A stretch of 64,000 bases of DNA from a virus, in the IMG/VR virus record IMGVR_UViG_3300032087_006189. One strand, given 5' to 3'. Position numbers and translations under genes: made by a program. Position 1 is the first letter of the stretch, and each line of letters begins with the position of its first letter. Below the pieces are notes generated by a model. That model made no database searches, had not been told where the DNA came from, and saw only the letters and a list, made by a program, of their open reading frames with translations. Positions 31,850 to 39,068 of the stretch are shown piece by piece.

Positions 31850-32401
31850 CTACCGACGTTTCCGCATGGCTGACAGGGACAGTCTAATGCTGTCCTTAAT
31901 GTCTTCGGGTGAAAAGCCGGCACCGAGACCGGCAATCCCGAGAGTCCTTCCTTTCCTACCCTTGAGATTAGGTCTATTCTTCACCGCCCCCTTGATCCCG
32001 CTAATAGTTAGTTTACTGCCAAAACCAGGTGTACTCTTCGGCGCTGCTGCGCCCTTCACCCACTTCTGGTTGTCCTTGTCCTTGGTCTTCTTCGGGCTCC
32101 ACTTGGCCTTGTCGGCCCAGTAGGCTGCGGACATCTTGCCTCGTGCGATGTTCTTTCGGTGACGGGACTTGAAGGCTTCGCGCTGACCGGCAGTCTGGTT
32201 CGTCTTGACGCCCTGCTGCCCGAAGCGGATGGTCTTCACCCGATCCCCCTCTTTAGCCACCACAATGTGCGACTTCGTGGGGTGTCCGGGGGTGCGCTTC
32301 ACCTGGTTGTATCCAGAGACCCCTGCTCGAGCGAGGCGAGGATCTTTGGACTGGGCGGCTTCTTTTTCCATCAAGAACTGCCGAAGAGCTTTGTAGTTCA
32401 T
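31850..32401 (-). CDS. K-x-A-A-linked modular basic protein (RFG...FKSRH...AYW phage domain)
   Basis: Leader MNYKALRQFLMEKEAA; domain TIRFGQQG...AFKSRH...SAAYWADKAKW; second linker KGAAA. Confidence 0.7.
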   Translation of the reverse strand: MNYKALRQFLMEKEAAQSKDPRLARAGVSGYNQVKRTPGHPTKSHIVVAKEGDRVKTIRFGQQGVKTNQTAGQREAFKSRHRKNIARGKMSAAYWADKAKWSPKKTKDKDNQKWVKGAAAPKSTPGFGSKLTISGIKGAVKNRPNLKGRKGRTLGIAGLGAGFSPEDIKDSIRLSLSAMRKRR

Positions 32402-33963
32402 TTCTTCGCCTTCAAGCTGGTGCCCTTGGCAAGCCCGTGGGAGCTGTACTGCTGGCCCTTGCGCGTTGCCTCTGACTTCTTTCGAGACGCGGCAGCAAGG
32501 CTCTTGCGTCCAGATTCGGTTTTCTTGAGTCTATCAGCCTTTCTTTCTGGGAGGTAGACCCCTTTACCCCCCGGACCTGGCTTGTCTCCACCCGACCAGT
32601 TCCACTTTTGCTTGGTCCACTTCTTCAGCGAGTTGTTCTTCGAAGTGGGCTTGGCGCCGGAGTAGCCGCCGCCCTTCTTCTTGTAGATCTGAGTCGCCAG
32701 CTGCATTGCGCGAGCAGAGTGCTTGCCGCCCATCTTGTTCTTGGCTTCGCGCTTCGCGGCTTCCCACTTGACTGGGTCGGTCTTGGTGGCGGTCGCAGCA
32801 GCCTCTTTGCCAATTCCATAATGGGAAGGAGGATGTACGGACCACTGTCGATAGTCGGGCATAGAGCGACCGCTTTCCAGTTTGACTGTAGGCAGGGCCT
32901 TCATGGTCTTCAGGGTCTCTCTTCGATACTTTCTTTTTTGCTGACTTGTCAGGCCCTTATTGTGGGAAAGGAACTCTTGGTTCTTCTTTCTGCCGGTGTC
33001 GAAGATGTCGTTGAACGCCGCAGACTCTTTGATCAAGTCTCCATCGGGGTGCTTGCGAACCTTGCCGGAGGCGATCAACGACTTGATTGCGGACTGCAAA
33101 TCGTCTTCCTTGACTCGCTTTTTGAGTGCGCCCATCCCTGCTGCGCCACCCTCAACACTGAGCGCCTTCAGGACTTGCGACTCGGTGGAGGCTGCCTGCT
33201 TTCGCATGCGGAGCTTCTTCTTGATGATGCCGGCTTGGATCTTGTCTGGAAGCTGAGACTGCTTGCCCTTGAGCGCAGGGTGCTTGTCCATGGACTTTGA
33301 GAAGGTTGCCGCAGATTCTTTGTCCATGAGCTCGTCCACGGGGCGGAAGAGGTAATCTTCTGCCATATCTCGTGAAAGCTGTTTCATTAGGGCGGGGTTT
33401 GCGAGTCTTCGCTTCTGGGCTGCCAAAGCCCTTTGATGCATCTGCTCGCCCCGCTCTCCACGCAGATCTTTATTCACCTTGTGCCCAGTAATGGCCCCCA
33501 GAAGTGCTCCAGCAGATCCAGTGACTGCCGGTGCATACCGCATCTTAGGGATGTACGACAGGGGGTACCCGAGACCGACCCCAAGAAGCCCTCCTCCAAG
33601 GATTCCAAGAGGCACCATACTGGGTGCGTGCTTTGGGTGCGTAGGATCTTTCAGTAGTCCCGCATGGATCTCTCTGGCAAGCTCATTTGGGTCATCCGTG
33701 ATGTGATCCTCTGCGATCCTGCCAGCTGCGTGGATGTCGTCGTCCTCATACTGAGACCAGTCTGCCGCCATCTTCTCTTCGTACTCACCGGGGTACGCAG
33801 TTCCCAGCGCACTGCCGAGCCCGCTGTAGGCGTTGTAGATCTTGTACTCGGCCCACGACGGAATCTGGAGCCCAGAGTCGATCTTGTCCTTGAGGTGCAG
33901 AGCTTGAGCAGCCATGCGCTCAAGAACCTTGCTCAGCATATGAGAGTCGTCGTACTCGCTCAT
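32398..33963 (-). CDS. K-x-A-A-linked polyprotein (~521 aa, about six modules including a Gly-zipper, a wHTH-like module and a C-terminal DUF5872-like module)
   Basis: The real start is ATG 33963 (ATGA overlap). Linkers are EKMAA, DKESAA, RKQAAS, IKESAA and GKEAAA. The last module reads HSARAMQLATQIYKKKGGGY...SLKKWTKQKW...YLP. Confidence 0.75.
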   Translation of the reverse strand: MSEYDDSHMLSKVLERMAAQALHLKDKIDSGLQIPSWAEYKIYNAYSGLGSALGTAYPGEYEEKMAADWSQYEDDDIHAAGRIAEDHITDDPNELAREIHAGLLKDPTHPKHAPSMVPLGILGGGLLGVGLGYPLSYIPKMRYAPAVTGSAGALLGAITGHKVNKDLRGERGEQMHQRALAAQKRRLANPALMKQLSRDMAEDYLFRPVDELMDKESAATFSKSMDKHPALKGKQSQLPDKIQAGIIKKKLRMRKQAASTESQVLKALSVEGGAAGMGALKKRVKEDDLQSAIKSLIASGKVRKHPDGDLIKESAAFNDIFDTGRKKNQEFLSHNKGLTSQQKRKYRRETLKTMKALPTVKLESGRSMPDYRQWSVHPPSHYGIGKEAAATATKTDPVKWEAAKREAKNKMGGKHSARAMQLATQIYKKKGGGYSGAKPTSKNNSLKKWTKQKWNWSGGDKPGPGGKGVYLPERKADRLKKTESGRKSLAAASRKKSEATRKGQQYSSHGLAKGTSLKAKK

Positions 33964-34469
33964 TTCTTTTCCCAGTCGAGGGACACGGAGTCCTTGGTAA
34001 TGGGGCCACCGGATGCCCAAGTATAGCAAGTACGGGCAGAATGGCACTTGAAGTGATGCATGTGGCAATAGCCGAGGTATCCGTCCTCTTGGACCATGCC
34101 GGGCATGCAGTCCTGCATTCGCGGAGAGATGTCGAAAGCCACGCAGTTCGAGCACTTCGACTTCTTGGCCACGGCAGGAGTCGTCTTCCAATGCGCGGCC
34201 AAGCGCCTCCAGTACCCTTGATCGGATAGATTCAGGGGTCCGTATTGGATGTGGTCAGCTTGGATCGACTTGTTGCGGTTCTTCGTATTGACCTTGAGAT
34301 CGCGGGTCGCAAGCGGGCACGCTGCAGCCTCTTTCGATCCACCGAGGTGGTAGCCACAGTTCGAGCACTTCTCCGCACCAGCATGGTTCATGTGCCCGCA
34401 CTTGGGACACTTGATCTTGCCGGCCGAGAGCTTGATCAGCTCAAGTGTGAATCCTGGGAGAAGTCTCAT
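33960..34469 (-). CDS. K-x-A-linked Cys-rich protein: zinc ribbon plus a Cys/His metal-binding domain
   Basis: Leader FTLELIKLSA; CPKC..CSNC; linker SKEAAA; then CSNCVAF...GYCHMHHFKC...TCYTW. Confidence 0.7.
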   Translation of the reverse strand: MRLLPGFTLELIKLSAGKIKCPKCGHMNHAGAEKCSNCGYHLGGSKEAAACPLATRDLKVNTKNRNKSIQADHIQYGPLNLSDQGYWRRLAAHWKTTPAVAKKSKCSNCVAFDISPRMQDCMPGMVQEDGYLGYCHMHHFKCHSARTCYTWASGGPITKDSVSLDWEKK

Positions 34470-37153
34470 TTTTTGTCCGTAAACTTCGTGCGATTGGTCA
34501 GGCGACTGACTGCGCGCAGATTAGCAGATCCATTGCCGCCGCCCTTGGAAATCGGCGTCTTGTGATCAGCTTCTCGAGGGTCGCCCTTCTTCAGGCCCAG
34601 TTTTCTGCGTGCCTGATTTCGCATGCTGCGGTTGGCTACTTGCTCTGGCTTTGCGTGGTACTGAGCGTACTCTCGGGCATAGTCTCTTTTGCGCTGACCG
34701 TATGGGGCTGCCGCGTATTTTGCGATTCCCTTTTCTATGAGCTCTCCTGACTCACTAAATCGCGCCGGCCGAACGATCTCCTTCATTTTTGCGCCGACGC
34801 CTGCTCCGTCCTCAAAGGGATCAAAGAGCTTTCTCAGGTCATTGGGCTCTAAGGTCTTTGCATCGATACCTCCCACTACGTTGCGGAAGTCGTGAGCACT
34901 CGGTATCGCGTGAATCTCTCCATTTACTCGGCGCATACCAACTGGACGATCTCCAAAGGCCCTTTGAATCTCTCTGTGATCGAGCTGTTGCCACGGATTA
35001 CTGGGATCGGCGTAGAACTTTTTATTCTGCACAAATCCAGCGTAGTTTGGGTTAGCTGCGTACCGCGCATTCCACTGCTTGAGGGCCTCATCTGTAGAGG
35101 GATCGTACGCTGACGGCGGCGGAGCCGCCGCACGAGAAGCTGCCGGAGGCGGTGCTGACGGCGGCGGAGCCGCCGCACGAGAAGCTGCCGGAGGCGGTGC
35201 TGACGGCGGCGGAGCCGCCGCACGCGCAGTAGAGCGTGCAGCCTTGGGAGCGGAGCCTGCAGCCGAAGTAGCAGCGTCAGCTGCTCCGGTTGCAGCACGG
35301 CGAGTTGCTTTGGGGGCTGCGGATGGGGTCAGCTTCTTGAGGAGCTTTGGTGCTTGGCTGATTCCCGCACCAAGAGTTCCTCCCAGCAAGGCTCCCTTTA
35401 GTCCTCCGTAGTCTGCACCGGAATCGTACCCCGCAGCTCCGCCGAGGATTGCTCCGATGCCCGCGCCAGCTGCGAGTGATGCGACCTTGACCCGCTCGCC
35501 GGGAGGCTTCATGTTCGGGCCCAGCACGGTCTTCACGACATGCTTTGATCCGATGTCGCCAATAACGACGTAGCCTTTTCCGCTTTTGAGGGGGACATGG
35601 TAGGTCTGCCCCTTGCGAAGATTCATCATCGGAATGCGCGCTCGAATCTTGGCGACTTCATAGGTCGCGCCTGGAGCTCGCTCTGCGATGCGGTCCTCTA
35701 CATGACCGGCTTCCTTTTCGATATCACTGGCCTGTTGGAATACTGCTCTCATTTGATTTGCCAGCTCCGTCTTTTCATCGGCTCGATCTTGAATCCACTG
35801 CTCAGTGGACTTGCCAGGATCCATGCCGAGAAATCCCTTGGGAAGAGAAGAATAGTACCGCTGCACATGAACCTTACGCTCTGCAGGCGGAAGATGGGCG
35901 TGACTCTGGTAGCGAACCCCGCGTCCGATCACCTGGTCGATCTTTGAGTTGTTCCAGTGGGGCTCAAGAACCTGAACCATCTTGGTGCCCTTGAGGTCCA
36001 GCCCCTCAGTTCCCGAACTCGAGACAAGCAGGACAGGGACCTTGCCCGAGTTGTACTCGTCTACCATCTGCGCCTTTTGCTTTGCGTTCAACTTCCCGGT
36101 CAGGGTGTTGAACTTGATCTTCTTCTTTTTTAGCGCGCGCTCGTAGGGCTTGAGCCCCGCCTCGATGTAGTTCGAGTAGACAACTCCGCGGAATCGGCGA
36201 TCTTTCTTCTTTGCCTCGTGCAGTCTGCGGGCTGCTTCCTGAATCTTGGGAGTGTGGAGCTCCTCCTCCTCTTCCGTCATAGTGTCGACATACGGCTTCG
36301 GAGAAAGCGACGCTTGCCTGCCCGCAGTCGTAAACGCATTGAGCATTCGCGACTCTTGCTTTGAGGGCGGCAACCCTGCGCGGATCTTGCGTCGCACATG
36401 CCACGGAGCGGCGCCCATCACCGCATTGTAGACTTCCTTCTGCTTTCCCGACATTGGGACATTGATGCGCTCGTCAATCTGCTCTGGGAAGTCCTCTGGG
36501 TTTGCCTCAGAATGGACATCGATCCTTCCCACGAGGGCATCGCGCAGCGCAGTGGCGTTCTGAAGGTCTTTGCGGATTCCGGGTTGAACACCTACCAACC
36601 GGTTCAACAAGCCAGGAGAAACCTTTGTCTCCCGGATAAACTTGCGCCGAAAAGACATGGTGTCGGCAGGAAGTACGGTCTCCCCTGCAGCGATGTTTGC
36701 AAGAGGCGCAATATCAAAGGGCTGGTTGTACAGCGCGGTTCCAGTCAAGAGTAGCCGCTTACCGGCCTGTTCGGACTCAGGCCTCAGCGTTCTTGTTGTC
36801 AAAGACGGGTTCCGAAGCCTGTGTGCTTCGTCGAGAACTAGAAAAGAGCCGGGCTCGATCGCTGCTCGCTCTTCCTTGGTTTTGCGGCGAACTGCTTTCT
36901 CGTAGGAGCTGATTCTGGCTTCGACCTCTCCCTTGACGTGCTTTTTGATCTCCTTTTCATAGTTCTTCGTTAGCGATGCCGGAGTGATGATCTCCATCGG
37001 AGCACCACTTCTGACACCCGCAGCAATAGAGGTCAGCGTCTTTCCAGCCCCTACGCGGTGAGCAACAATGACGCCGTCGCTGTTCTCCAGCTTGCGGAGG
37101 ACCCGCTCTTGATGCGGCTTGAGCTTGGCGGTGACTTTGGGAGATTTAGACAT
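34466..37153 (-). CDS. SNF2-like SF2 helicase fused through K-x-A linkers to small domains and a C-terminal HNH endonuclease
   Basis: Helicase motifs LKPHQ, GAGKT, LDEAH, LLTGT, GTEGLDL, EPHWN and QVIGRGVR. HNH is EADHKTPISKGGGNGSANLRAVSRLTNR. The start is probably MSKSPK at 37153. Confidence 0.85.
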   Translation of the reverse strand: MSKSPKVTAKLKPHQERVLRKLENSDGVIVAHRVGAGKTLTSIAAGVRSGAPMEIITPASLTKNYEKEIKKHVKGEVEARISSYEKAVRRKTKEERAAIEPGSFLVLDEAHRLRNPSLTTRTLRPESEQAGKRLLLTGTALYNQPFDIAPLANIAAGETVLPADTMSFRRKFIRETKVSPGLLNRLVGVQPGIRKDLQNATALRDALVGRIDVHSEANPEDFPEQIDERINVPMSGKQKEVYNAVMGAAPWHVRRKIRAGLPPSKQESRMLNAFTTAGRQASLSPKPYVDTMTEEEEELHTPKIQEAARRLHEAKKKDRRFRGVVYSNYIEAGLKPYERALKKKKIKFNTLTGKLNAKQKAQMVDEYNSGKVPVLLVSSSGTEGLDLKGTKMVQVLEPHWNNSKIDQVIGRGVRYQSHAHLPPAERKVHVQRYYSSLPKGFLGMDPGKSTEQWIQDRADEKTELANQMRAVFQQASDIEKEAGHVEDRIAERAPGATYEVAKIRARIPMMNLRKGQTYHVPLKSGKGYVVIGDIGSKHVVKTVLGPNMKPPGERVKVASLAAGAGIGAILGGAAGYDSGADYGGLKGALLGGTLGAGISQAPKLLKKLTPSAAPKATRRAATGAADAATSAAGSAPKAARSTARAAAPPPSAPPPAASRAAAPPPSAPPPAASRAAAPPPSAYDPSTDEALKQWNARYAANPNYAGFVQNKKFYADPSNPWQQLDHREIQRAFGDRPVGMRRVNGEIHAIPSAHDFRNVVGGIDAKTLEPNDLRKLFDPFEDGAGVGAKMKEIVRPARFSESGELIEKGIAKYAAAPYGQRKRDYAREYAQYHAKPEQVANRSMRNQARRKLGLKKGDPREADHKTPISKGGGNGSANLRAVSRLTNRTKFTDKK
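35109..35224. repeat. 45-bp tandem repeat (~2.6 copies) encoding an RAAAPPPSAPPPAAS linker
   Basis: gctgacggcggcggagccgccgcacgagaagctgccggaggcggt repeats exactly at 35109 and 35154 and partially at 35199. Confidence 0.9.
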
Positions 37154-39068
37154 CCAAGCCCCACAAAACCATCGCCTCTTTTTTGGCATCTTCGTAGGTA
37201 CGGGACTTGGCTGACGTCTCGCTTACGTCAGCCAGATCCGTCTTCCCTTTGAGCCTGCCGATAGTGGGGCGCTGTCCGAGAGCCTTGCCCAGGTGCTTCA
37301 CATGCGCGTTTCTATCCGACACAAGGAAGTCAGCGGGGGCCGTCATTGACCATCTGCCGCCCCGAGTGTGAGTAGCGTGACCTTGCAGGGCATACGCGGC
37401 CCCAATCAGGTTGCTGCAGGTCCACTTGTCCGTCTTTTTGATCTCCTTGCCATGGTCCAGCTTCTTGTCGAAGTACTTCGGCATGAAGATCGAGAAGCCC
37501 TTTTTGGCCAAGAACTTGTGAGACTCGTAAGGGGCTCCCACCTGCGTCTTGGCAAATGTTGCAGCCGCGCGACGAGCCTTGGTGCTGACTTTTGGACGAA
37601 CGACCACTGCCCCGTCCAAATCCCGTAGAGATCTCTTGAGAGATCGCCTTACGACGCCCCCCTGCAAAGCCTCGACTACCTGGCCCTTTCCGACGTAGAT
37701 GGCAGAGTGGGTGTAGGATCCTTGCGCAGCGGGAGAAGCCTTGCGGAAGAACTGTTCCTTCATCCGCTTGTGAAGAGGGGCACCTGAGTCCTTCGAATAC
37801 TGCTCGGGAGCCATAGCAGTGAGGATCACGTCTCCTACCTGCATGCCCTTTGAACTTGCTTCTCTGGCGGCCATCGCCTCTTTTTTGATGTCCTCGTAAG
37901 TACGGATTGATCGGAAGTTTGGAGACTTCTCCTCAATCTCTTTCCGGTACTTCAGATCATCGAAGTGAGTAGTCAGTCCCATCTTGAGATCTGGAAGCAT
38001 GGGCGTGCCTCGCTCTCGCGATCGCTTGCCCACCCGAAACATGCGAGTCGCCATTGGGGTGTCCAGGTACAGGACATCATCCGCCTGTGCCAACAGCTTA
38101 GGATACCTCAGTGCCCCTCTTGGGTATCCCTCCACAAGGACCCGCTTACCCTTTGCGCGCATCTTCAGTGCGAGAGCTTCTCTGCGGTTGCGAATCTTCT
38201 CGCGCTCGGCTTTGGGCGGCTTGACATACTGTCCGTTGACGACCCCTCCCGTGTCTGTCCCGATCAGGACATCAAACTCTCCGCTGTCGACCAGCTTCTT
38301 GGCCATCGTGCTTTTGCCCGCGCCGGCTCCACCAGTGATGAAAGTCAGTCGCGGAGCTTTGTCGGATGCCTCTTTTTTGAGCTCTCTTTGCGCCAGAATC
38401 TCAATGCCGGGGTATTTAGCGGCTACAGCTTTACGGACCTGTGATTTCTCCCCCGGAGTACCGTGCTGGGCTACTCGAGCTAGGGCATTGCGAGCATGAG
38501 ATCGGTCATGGATCGGATAACGCCTACCGGGCAGAGCGAAGTTGCCTTCGGAGATCTGATTACGTCCTCTGGTTGTTAGCTCTGCCGCTTCTTTCTTGAG
38601 CTCTCCGTAGGAGGCAGTCTTGTTCATCTGCTTGAACTGTCGAATGTGTTTGCAGTCCACGACTTCTCCCGGTTTCGCGACCGAACGCTTGTAGCGCCAG
38701 TCGTTGCAGGTGCATCCCAGCCGGTCTTTGCCGCGCAGCTTGACGATGCTGTAACTCTTGGACCCGCTCTGGACGGTGCCGACCTTCTTTCCGGTCTGCA
38801 GGCGATTCATGTTGTCCGCGTGCATGACCAGCTTGGCATCAGAGCGAGAGTCACTTCCCAGCTGCTTCACAAAGGACTTGCGCGAAGCATTGTTGAGGAA
38901 CTGGTCCCAGTCCTTCTTCTTTGCGGTGTGAAAGCTCTCGACCCGCGCACCGGCACGCTTCTTTTCTCTCGACTGAAAGAAGTTCTGAAGTCGGCCTCTG
39001 ATTCCAGAAACAAAAGAGGATGGCGAAAACTCGCCATCCTTTTCAAACTCTGGATAGAAGTGGTACAT
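37146..39068 (-). CDS. Four-module polyprotein: SWIM zinc finger, DUF6582-like domain, P-loop kinase, and permuted NlpC/P60 (YiiX/C92) amidase
   Basis: CTCNDW...CKH; NFALPGRRYPIHDRSHARNALARV; ITGGAGAGKST...VEGYPR; GDVIL...THSAIYVG...VGAPY...CSNLI. Modules are separated by KKEA[A/S/M]. Confidence 0.8.
   Translation of the reverse strand: MYHFYPEFEKDGEFSPSSFVSGIRGRLQNFFQSREKKRAGARVESFHTAKKKDWDQFLNNASRKSFVKQLGSDSRSDAKLVMHADNMNRLQTGKKVGTVQSGSKSYSIVKLRGKDRLGCTCNDWRYKRSVAKPGEVVDCKHIRQFKQMNKTASYGELKKEAAELTTRGRNQISEGNFALPGRRYPIHDRSHARNALARVAQHGTPGEKSQVRKAVAAKYPGIEILAQRELKKEASDKAPRLTFITGGAGAGKSTMAKKLVDSGEFDVLIGTDTGGVVNGQYVKPPKAEREKIRNRREALALKMRAKGKRVLVEGYPRGALRYPKLLAQADDVLYLDTPMATRMFRVGKRSRERGTPMLPDLKMGLTTHFDDLKYRKEIEEKSPNFRSIRTYEDIKKEAMAAREASSKGMQVGDVILTAMAPEQYSKDSGAPLHKRMKEQFFRKASPAAQGSYTHSAIYVGKGQVVEALQGGVVRRSLKRSLRDLDGAVVVRPKVSTKARRAAATFAKTQVGAPYESHKFLAKKGFSIFMPKYFDKKLDHGKEIKKTDKWTCSNLIGAAYALQGHATHTRGGRWSMTAPADFLVSDRNAHVKHLGKALGQRPTIGRLKGKTDLADVSETSAKSRTYEDAKKEAMVLWGLDV

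Follow-up and report, generated by a model that had tools for sequence, protein, structure and literature searches.

Introduction

In phage T4, the enzymes IPI-III and Alt carry an N-terminal leader that ends in a protease motif; they are packed in the head, trimmed and injected. The T4 prohead protease, gp21, cuts after Glu in the sequence L/I-x-E. The large phages phiKZ and SPN3US, which carry a virion RNA polymerase, process many head-internal proteins at a short motif through their prohead proteases (gp175 and gp245, respectively), with multiple cuts per protein. In SPN3US, all identified cuts apart from self-cleavage of the protease yield N-terminal propeptides (PMC10052503). Polyvalent proteins, described by Iyer, Burroughs, Anand, de Souza and Aravind in 2017, are mosaics of 2-15 unrelated effector domains in one polypeptide that are predicted to be packaged and delivered with the DNA; self-processing by zincin-like domains was proposed for them, and no joint motif tied to a head protease was described (PMC5512222). 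In herpesviruses, the protease assemblin lies N-terminal to the scaffold domain and cuts after Ala, before Ser or Thr, at the R and M sites (PMC4498786). Here we analyze an operon of five genes, at positions 31850-39068 of a 64,000-nucleotide (nt) stretch of virus DNA (IMG/VR virus record IMGVR_UViG_3300032087_006189; hereafter, the window), whose products are chains of unrelated modules joined at a Lys-x-Ala (K-x-A) motif.

We favor, at somewhat better than an even chance, a reading in which the five proteins are cassette-built cargo that is loaded in the procapsid, cut after Ala by an assemblin-like protease and ejected with the DNA. As part of this reading, the five genes would be a lineage-specific form of phage polyvalent proteins. 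The window proteins do contain several unrelated effector-type domains in mosaic order, as judged from Pfam, PHROGs, AlphaFold models and shuffling among homologues. Domains of the polyvalent type include SNF2 in the window, NUDIX and methylase in relatives and, both by signature only, a ParB-like domain in the relative G001 and a zincin in the relative L001. The signature domains MuF, ART, methylase and the methylase-helicase dyad were not found in the window.

By analogy, the window system may work like the capsid-targeted internal proteins of T4 and the ejection proteins of phiKZ and SPN3US, with a different code. The proposed cargo, if packaged, resembles IPI-III and Alt; the protease of the relatives is modeled with the gp21 fold, and the motif is common to scaffold and capsid proteins. 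However, the signature of the window lineage is hydrophobic-x-K-x-A rather than the L/I-x-E of T4 and, where T4 removes one N-terminal leader, the window proteins have up to five internal joints between unrelated modules. The cuts made in SPN3US release no separate enzymes, and its motif ends in Glu, unlike the K-x-A of the window. The likeness to assemblin lies in the relatives' proteases of 560-660 amino acids (aa), which consist of a protease domain, a release site and a scaffold-like tail and share its fold in models. They differ from assemblin in having Lys two positions before Ala where assemblin has V/L/I, in having cargo enzymes as would-be substrates and in belonging to a bacterial virus.

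The new element would be a cargo operon of shuffled modules with the Lys-x-Ala code as its universal joint. In the systems studied so far, head proteases trim N-terminal propeptides only, to our knowledge. If the proposed mechanism is true, this would be the first tailed phage in which several unrelated enzymes are released from one precursor via the head protease, and it would provide a natural modular scheme by which foreign proteins could be loaded into capsids. Fast change in the cargo repertoire, of the kind that leaves blocks of 97% identity beside a 62%-identical helicase, would be explained as well. If the joints are cleavage sites, the motif would predict head cargo from sequence alone in a widespread, mostly uncultured group of 130-200-kb phages. 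The idea is directly testable in a cultured relative, Salmonella phage Arash.

Results

Module borders carry a Lys-x-Ala motif

The operon consists of five minus-strand genes chained by 4-nt start/stop overlaps. An earlier note on this DNA had described five overlapping, coupled genes of unrelated modules, and our gene calls and module chains confirm that description. Every motif the note listed is present in the translations, and its claim that nearly every module boundary carries one was borne out: at least 15 of the 21 loose matches fall on a module border. For comparison, we read two syntenic relatives, L001 (a Logan contig) and G001 (an IMG/VR record of 131 kb that is collinear with the window). 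All ten internal BLAST breakpoints against the operons of L001 and G001 lie within 8 residues of a motif; these motifs are K-M-A-A, K-E-S-A, K-Q-A-A and K-E-A-A in the 521-aa protein, K-V-A-S and K-Y-A-A at the insert of the 907-aa protein, and K-G-A-A in the 183-aa protein.

The association extends to homologues of the 640-aa protein, in which 62 of 219 internal alignment ends are no more than 8 residues from K.A[ASGM], compared with 18.3 expected; the control patterns R.A, E.A, K.L, K.G and A.K are at background near alignment ends. K-x-A followed by other residues is also enriched at these ends, which makes K-x-A the core, with a permissive next position. A narrower form, K-E-[AS]-A, is present six times in the five proteins (0.29 expected) and is absent from the other 16,790 residues of the window. 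Composition is corrected for by the shuffle controls.

Three loose matches lie within folded modules, one each in the 640-aa protein (K-D-S-G, residue 426), the 521-aa protein (K-H-S-A, residue 414) and the 183-aa protein (K-M-S-A, residue 89). The earlier note left them uncounted, and they are probably chance matches. We considered and rejected an origin of the motif in in-frame Shine-Dalgarno remnants or internal starts, because G-A-G-G underlies only 5 of 16 border motifs, the middle residue varies (it includes T, V, Y, M, Q, L and G) and the spacing to Met is too short.

The same signature marks head proteins of relatives

The distribution of K.A[ASG] in G001 is regional. The head block has 37 matches (14.9 expected) and the matching operon has 6 (2.4 expected), compared with 10 in the tail and large-protein block (12.4 expected) and 5 in the early region (5.7 expected); ten open reading frames contain 37 of the 58 sites. 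The earlier note had proposed testing for enrichment of the motif in capsid and scaffold propeptides and its depletion in tail and early proteins; this test, run on G001, gave the predicted pattern. Hydrophobic residues occupy the position two before Lys in 10 of the 15 cargo sites, in 21 of the 33 head sites and in only 4 of the 22 background sites. An extended signature, hydrophobic-x-K-x-A-small, is thus common to cargo and head sites and is not shared by background sites.

A 645-residue protein of the G001 head block matches weakly the PHROG for head maturation proteases and belongs to a large, conserved family. The family alignment has a near-invariant K-T-A-S near residue 37, a second site, K294-x-A296, that ends the protease domain, and a third site beyond. 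A model of the first 310 residues (predicted local distance difference test score, pLDDT, 80.5) is closest to T4 gp21 (5jbl_B; Z 9.1, root-mean-square deviation 2.9, 133 residues) and also matches herpesvirus proteases (Z 6-7.7). This model gives the relatives' head protease a gp21/assemblin fold. A Pfam search of G001 for S77 gave no hit, and a sequence search of the PDB with the protease returned noise only. Nine family members (P0199, P0208, P0215, P0217, P0222, P0226, P0231, P0232 and P0240) are about 880-1030 residues long and contain intein/homing-endonuclease domains (PF14528, PF13403, PF14890).

A virion orthologue of the helicase core in phage Arash

Arash encodes a homologue of the G001 protease (34% identical). 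The motif abounds in its head genes, gp220-226, and K-E-A-G is found at residue 27 of its capsid protein; the Arash tail, portal, RNA polymerase and early genes that we checked are at background. The motif is therefore found in head proteins of the relatives, in the N-terminus of the Arash capsid protein, in the protease and in the cargo.

Arash also encodes Gp217, which is orthologous to the SNF2 core of the 907-aa window protein (38% identity over residues 22-480, E 2e-101). In mass spectrometry of Arash virions, Gp217 yielded 38 unique peptides and 1148 spectra, an abundance near that of the capsid protein and of the polymerase subunit Gp216 (PMC10585845). A likely role of the helicase core is to assist the virion transcription machinery. 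In contrast to its window counterpart, Gp217 consists of the helicase alone (472 aa), without added modules; its gene lies inside the head block, which uses the K-x-A signature.

The most abundant Arash virion protein, the RNA polymerase subunit gp206 (L019:30093-34670), has a K-x-A-small match from residue 3. Two small G001 head-block proteins begin M-x(1-3)-K-x-A-A. In gp206 and in these two proteins, the near-N-terminal K-x-A may be a mini-leader.

The central proposal of the earlier note was that K-x-A is the maturation-protease site of this phage and that each gene encodes a head-packed polyprotein. In its favor are the enrichment in the head block and operon of G001, the shared signature, the gp21/assemblin fold and the presence of an SNF2 orthologue in Arash virions. 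Its further elements, namely cutting, packaging and release of separate effectors, keep the standing of conjecture, and its comparison to an RNA-virus-like polyprotein is interpretive wording.

Modules and joints of the five proteins

The 640-aa gene (37146-39068; like all operon features, on the minus strand) encodes a leader (residues 1-36), a SWIM-like finger (41-149), DUF6582 (163-231), a P-loop kinase (236-395), a permuted papain-like C92 peptidase (400-629) and a short tail, with limits drawn from Pfam, PHROGs, AlphaFold and module-wise homologues. C92, the kinase, SNF2/Helicase_C and the zinc ribbon are confirmed by Pfam and PHROGs: C92 (PF05708, YaeF/YiiX type) scores 27.8 bits, barely above its gathering score of 27, with PF05708 also carried by homologues, and the kinase has Pfam AAA_17/33 matches and PHROGs support. 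DUF6582 (PF20223) is under its Pfam cut-off (17.3 versus 27.3 bits) but matches phrog_16160 (4.7e-18), and PF20223 is annotated in many homologues of this module. The SWIM-like finger, and the HNH-like end of the 907-aa protein, are recognized by a Cys/His signature only.

Homologues align to the 640-aa protein module by module, and their alignment ends cluster at residues 153-163, 222-246, 396-399 and 609-639. K-T-A-S (residues 150-153; 38610-38621) ends the SWIM-like module, and K-E-A-A (residues 159-162; 38583-38594) immediately precedes DUF6582, where the AlphaFold pLDDT falls below 50 (residues 156-162); the homologue P0020 passes from SWIM to DUF6582 via the K-E-A-A joint alone. K-E-A-S (residues 232-235; 38364-38375) marks the border between DUF6582 and the kinase, within the 222-246 cluster, and in the homologue P0010 the kinase directly follows K-T-A-S. 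K-E-A-M (residues 396-399; 37872-37883) separates the kinase from C92, where alignments start or end, and a second K-E-A-M (residues 630-633; 37170-37181) follows C92, 7 residues before the stop. The earlier note had suggested looking for the motif at AlphaFold domain boundaries; in the model of this protein, all joints are in inter-domain helices or low-confidence linkers.

The 907-aa gene (34466-37189) encodes an SNF2 core (about residues 13-491), a small domain (496-567), an insert with Gly-zipper, Pro-rich and unknown segments (572-823) and the HNH-like end (828-907). The core is an SNF2 family helicase, with both lobes above their Pfam cut-offs (SNF2-rel_dom, 1.1e-15, 57.9 bits, cut-off 24.9; Helicase_C, 4.1e-14, 53.2 bits, cut-off 23.5). 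K-E-A-G (residues 492-495; 35705-35716) follows the SNF2 core. The 252-residue insert is missing from L001 and G001 and is bounded by a motif on each side: homology to these relatives stops at residues 573-574, next to K-V-A-S at the left edge (residues 568-571; 35477-35488), and resumes at 819-822, next to K-Y-A-A at the right edge, before the HNH-like end (residues 824-827; 34709-34720). Within the insert, a tandem repeat in a 15-nt register (35109-35243) encodes two to three Pro/Ala-rich units.

The 169-aa gene (33960-34469) encodes a short leader with K-L-S-A (residues 13-16), a zinc ribbon (17-45; Pfam Zn_ribbon_3 at 18-41), K-E-A-A (46-49) and a Cys-rich domain. Its product shares 97% identity with the last 165 residues of an L001 protein of 300 aa, in which the leader is internal. 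The 521-aa gene (32398-33963) starts at the ATG that overlaps the 169-aa stop, a choice matched by L001, which begins at identical residues. It encodes six modules split by K-M-A-A (residue 64), K-E-S-A (215), K-Q-A-A (255), K-E-S-A (312) and K-E-A-A (386); relative to a 356-aa protein of L001, the modules at 68-214 and 259-385 are extra, with breakpoints at the motifs. The last module is DUF5872-like, with a sub-threshold Pfam score (17.8 versus 27.5 bits) and a match to phrog_14910 (2.3e-05).

The 183-aa gene (31850-32401) encodes a 12-residue leader, K-E-A-A (residues 13-16), a phrog_7595 module (17-115; 3e-30), K-G-A-A (116-119) and a basic C-terminal module; the protein also has a partial match only to phrog_220, annotated 'minor head protein and DNA pilot'. 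In sioviruses, the phrog_7595 module is a stand-alone gene without the leader that follows endolysin- or spanin-like genes, as in Celeribacter phage P12053L gp37 (89 aa; L018:5025-5294). K-M-S-A at residue 89 is conserved in this stand-alone module and is therefore not a joint.

Cassette exchange and alternative readings

Module shuffling is seen in more than 100 homologues. In about 40 of them, at least 10 unrelated modules begin directly behind the K-T-A-[A/S/G] that ends SWIM. One of these modules is the small domain that follows SNF2 in the window, which stands directly after SWIM and K-T-A-G in P0014 and P0017; a second is similar to one of the modules in the 521-aa protein. Many homologues have K-x-A on either side of DUF6582. 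L001 has the 521-aa and 183-aa proteins as a single protein, where the leader and phrog_7595 module of the latter are fused in frame to the DUF5872 protein, which ends at K-G-S, and the leader serves as an internal linker. L001 and G001 both have a SWIM-helicase fusion, in which the helicase module begins right after a K-x-A/S joint, a few residues from the window helicase start. Judged by sequence, fused and split states interchange at the joints. Compared with L001, identity is 97% for the 169-aa and 183-aa proteins and for residues 1-67 of the 521-aa protein, and only 62-63% for the helicase and SWIM, a sign that part of the operon was exchanged recently.

Several results weigh against the cargo reading. 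The loose count is weak by itself, with 13 K.A[ASG] matches in the five proteins where shuffles give 8.0. Cargo joints, at which Met and Lys/Arg also occur after Ala, show a wider range of residues at this position than head proteins do. The head code was tested on G001 and Arash; the head block and protease of the window's own phage lie outside the window. Gp217 lacks the motif, and its peptide coverage is 100%; it is thus probably packaged uncut, and a helicase that is in virions without the motif indicates that packaging does not need the tag. With 116 of 252 proteins, the Arash 'virion' list (PMC10585845) clearly includes contaminants. For the five window proteins, we infer packaging, the cut and where exactly it falls, ejection and what the individual modules do.

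The joints could instead be helical spacers and recombination joints only, with conserved coding DNA that would let cassettes recombine; the proteins would then remain uncut and work as multi-domain polyvalent proteins, whether or not they are packaged. We regard this as unlikely. The DNA at two joints bears on it directly. A 35-nt direct repeat (86% identical) links the joint at 37872-37883 to that at 37170-37181 and brackets C92, and a 19-nt direct repeat (89% identical) links K-E-A-A at 38583-38594 to the next joint and brackets DUF6582; these repeats indicate that the linkers are at least also recombination footprints. However, three synonymous differences separate the two copies of R-T-Y-E-D-x-K-K-E-A-M, a sign that selection acts on the peptide rather than on the DNA. 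The joints are predicted as short helices, and K-E-A-A-A resembles the rigid linker E-A-A-A-K, but helix propensity fails to explain a fixed Lys and Ala around a free middle residue, with helix-breaking Ser or Gly next. Mosaic identity to L001 also fits linkers that serve exchange alone. Further, another phage group joins the same cassette differently: in a 35-kb podovirus-like contig (G002, L024/L025, 4796-6487), DUF6582 sits between Gly-rich M-[AD]-x-G-G joints, in Gln/Asn/Gly-rich proteins beside a 1025-aa gene. This contig has no matching head code and no match to Peptidase_S78, the sole protease family searched there; the Pfam search for S78 covered the small contigs G002 and G003 and found nothing. 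Cassette architecture is therefore not in itself a sign of a protease. What linkers alone leave unexplained is the signature in non-modular head proteins, at the capsid N-terminus and at the protease borders of the relatives.

The operon could also encode cytoplasmic enzymes of early or middle replication, transcription or defense evasion that never enter the capsid, in which case the likeness to the head code would stem from Lys/Ala composition and linker ancestry. At least 10 small co-directional genes run gaplessly into the operon from upstream, and a search for a promoter of the operon's own found none. Together with the modest count enrichment and the stand-alone phrog_7595 module beside lysis genes in sioviruses, this contiguity favors such a reading over the cargo one. 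Composition, however, is corrected by the shuffles and the border association is specific to K-x-A; the upstream genes are mostly without the motif; and the SNF2 orthologue, encoded in the head block, is among the most abundant Arash virion proteins. We consider a purely cytoplasmic role improbable.

Finally, the joints might be cut by another protease, in the cytoplasm or after injection. Candidates are the C92 peptidase within the 640-aa protein, a zincin as in L001 or a host enzyme. The L001 gene that follows the helicase (L001:12904-13905) has an H-E-L-G-H zincin-type motif and a leader like that of the 183-aa protein, and autoproteolysis of polyvalent proteins has been proposed by Iyer et al. 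(PMC5512222). The joints of G001 and L001 nevertheless keep the motif without a C92 module, and the motif fills head proteins and the borders of the head protease itself, which points to that protease. Cleavage by a different enzyme is thus, in our estimate, very improbable.

Proposed mechanism

Under the favored cargo reading, each module would end in hydrophobic-x-Lys-x-Ala, followed by a small residue or Met. The proteins could enter the procapsid via N-terminal leaders of the form N-Y-x-x-L-R-x-F-L-x-E-K-x-A or together with the SNF2 helicase and the virion transcription machinery. In its strict form, this leader pattern was found only in the operon and its counterparts and is absent from head blocks. 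The head-maturation protease would then cut after Ala, much as assemblin cuts at x-Ala|Ser. The freed modules, which would comprise the helicase core, SWIM-like finger, kinase, papain-like peptidase, HNH-like nuclease, zinc ribbon and small unknown domains, would stay in the head and be ejected with the DNA into the next host. The linker-coding DNA may double as a recombination joint at which cassettes are swapped among phages.

A broader proposition combines these steps: polyprotein cargo with a universal Lys-x-Ala joint, protease-separated proteins that are injected, and the same joint in DNA used for swapping, such that one four-residue code would serve capsid assembly, cargo release and cargo evolution. 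We hold it tentatively, at rather less than an even chance.

Gene arrangement and surroundings

At the junction of the 640-aa and 907-aa genes (37146-37189), the stop codon is overlapped by the second in-frame ATG of the helicase gene (A-T-G-T-C-T-A-A), an arrangement typical of translational coupling. The helicase probably starts by coupling at its own residue 13. An A6 run lies just upstream of this overlap. We rejected a frameshift or sequencing error at the run that would join the two genes, because the stop position is shared by P0007 (97% identical) and P0006 and the joint would be lost in a fused reading.

Among cultured phages, no close relative of the window was found by DNA, and only the DUF6582 segment of the 640-aa protein was matched, in Streptomyces phages. 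Between the operon and the next minus-strand block, which consists of very large, presumably structural genes, there are only two small genes and a ligase gene on the opposite strand. Within the first 20 codons of the 640-aa gene, a 10-bp GC-rich hairpin is followed by a T-run (39017-39040, minus strand); it may act as an attenuator or have arisen by chance.

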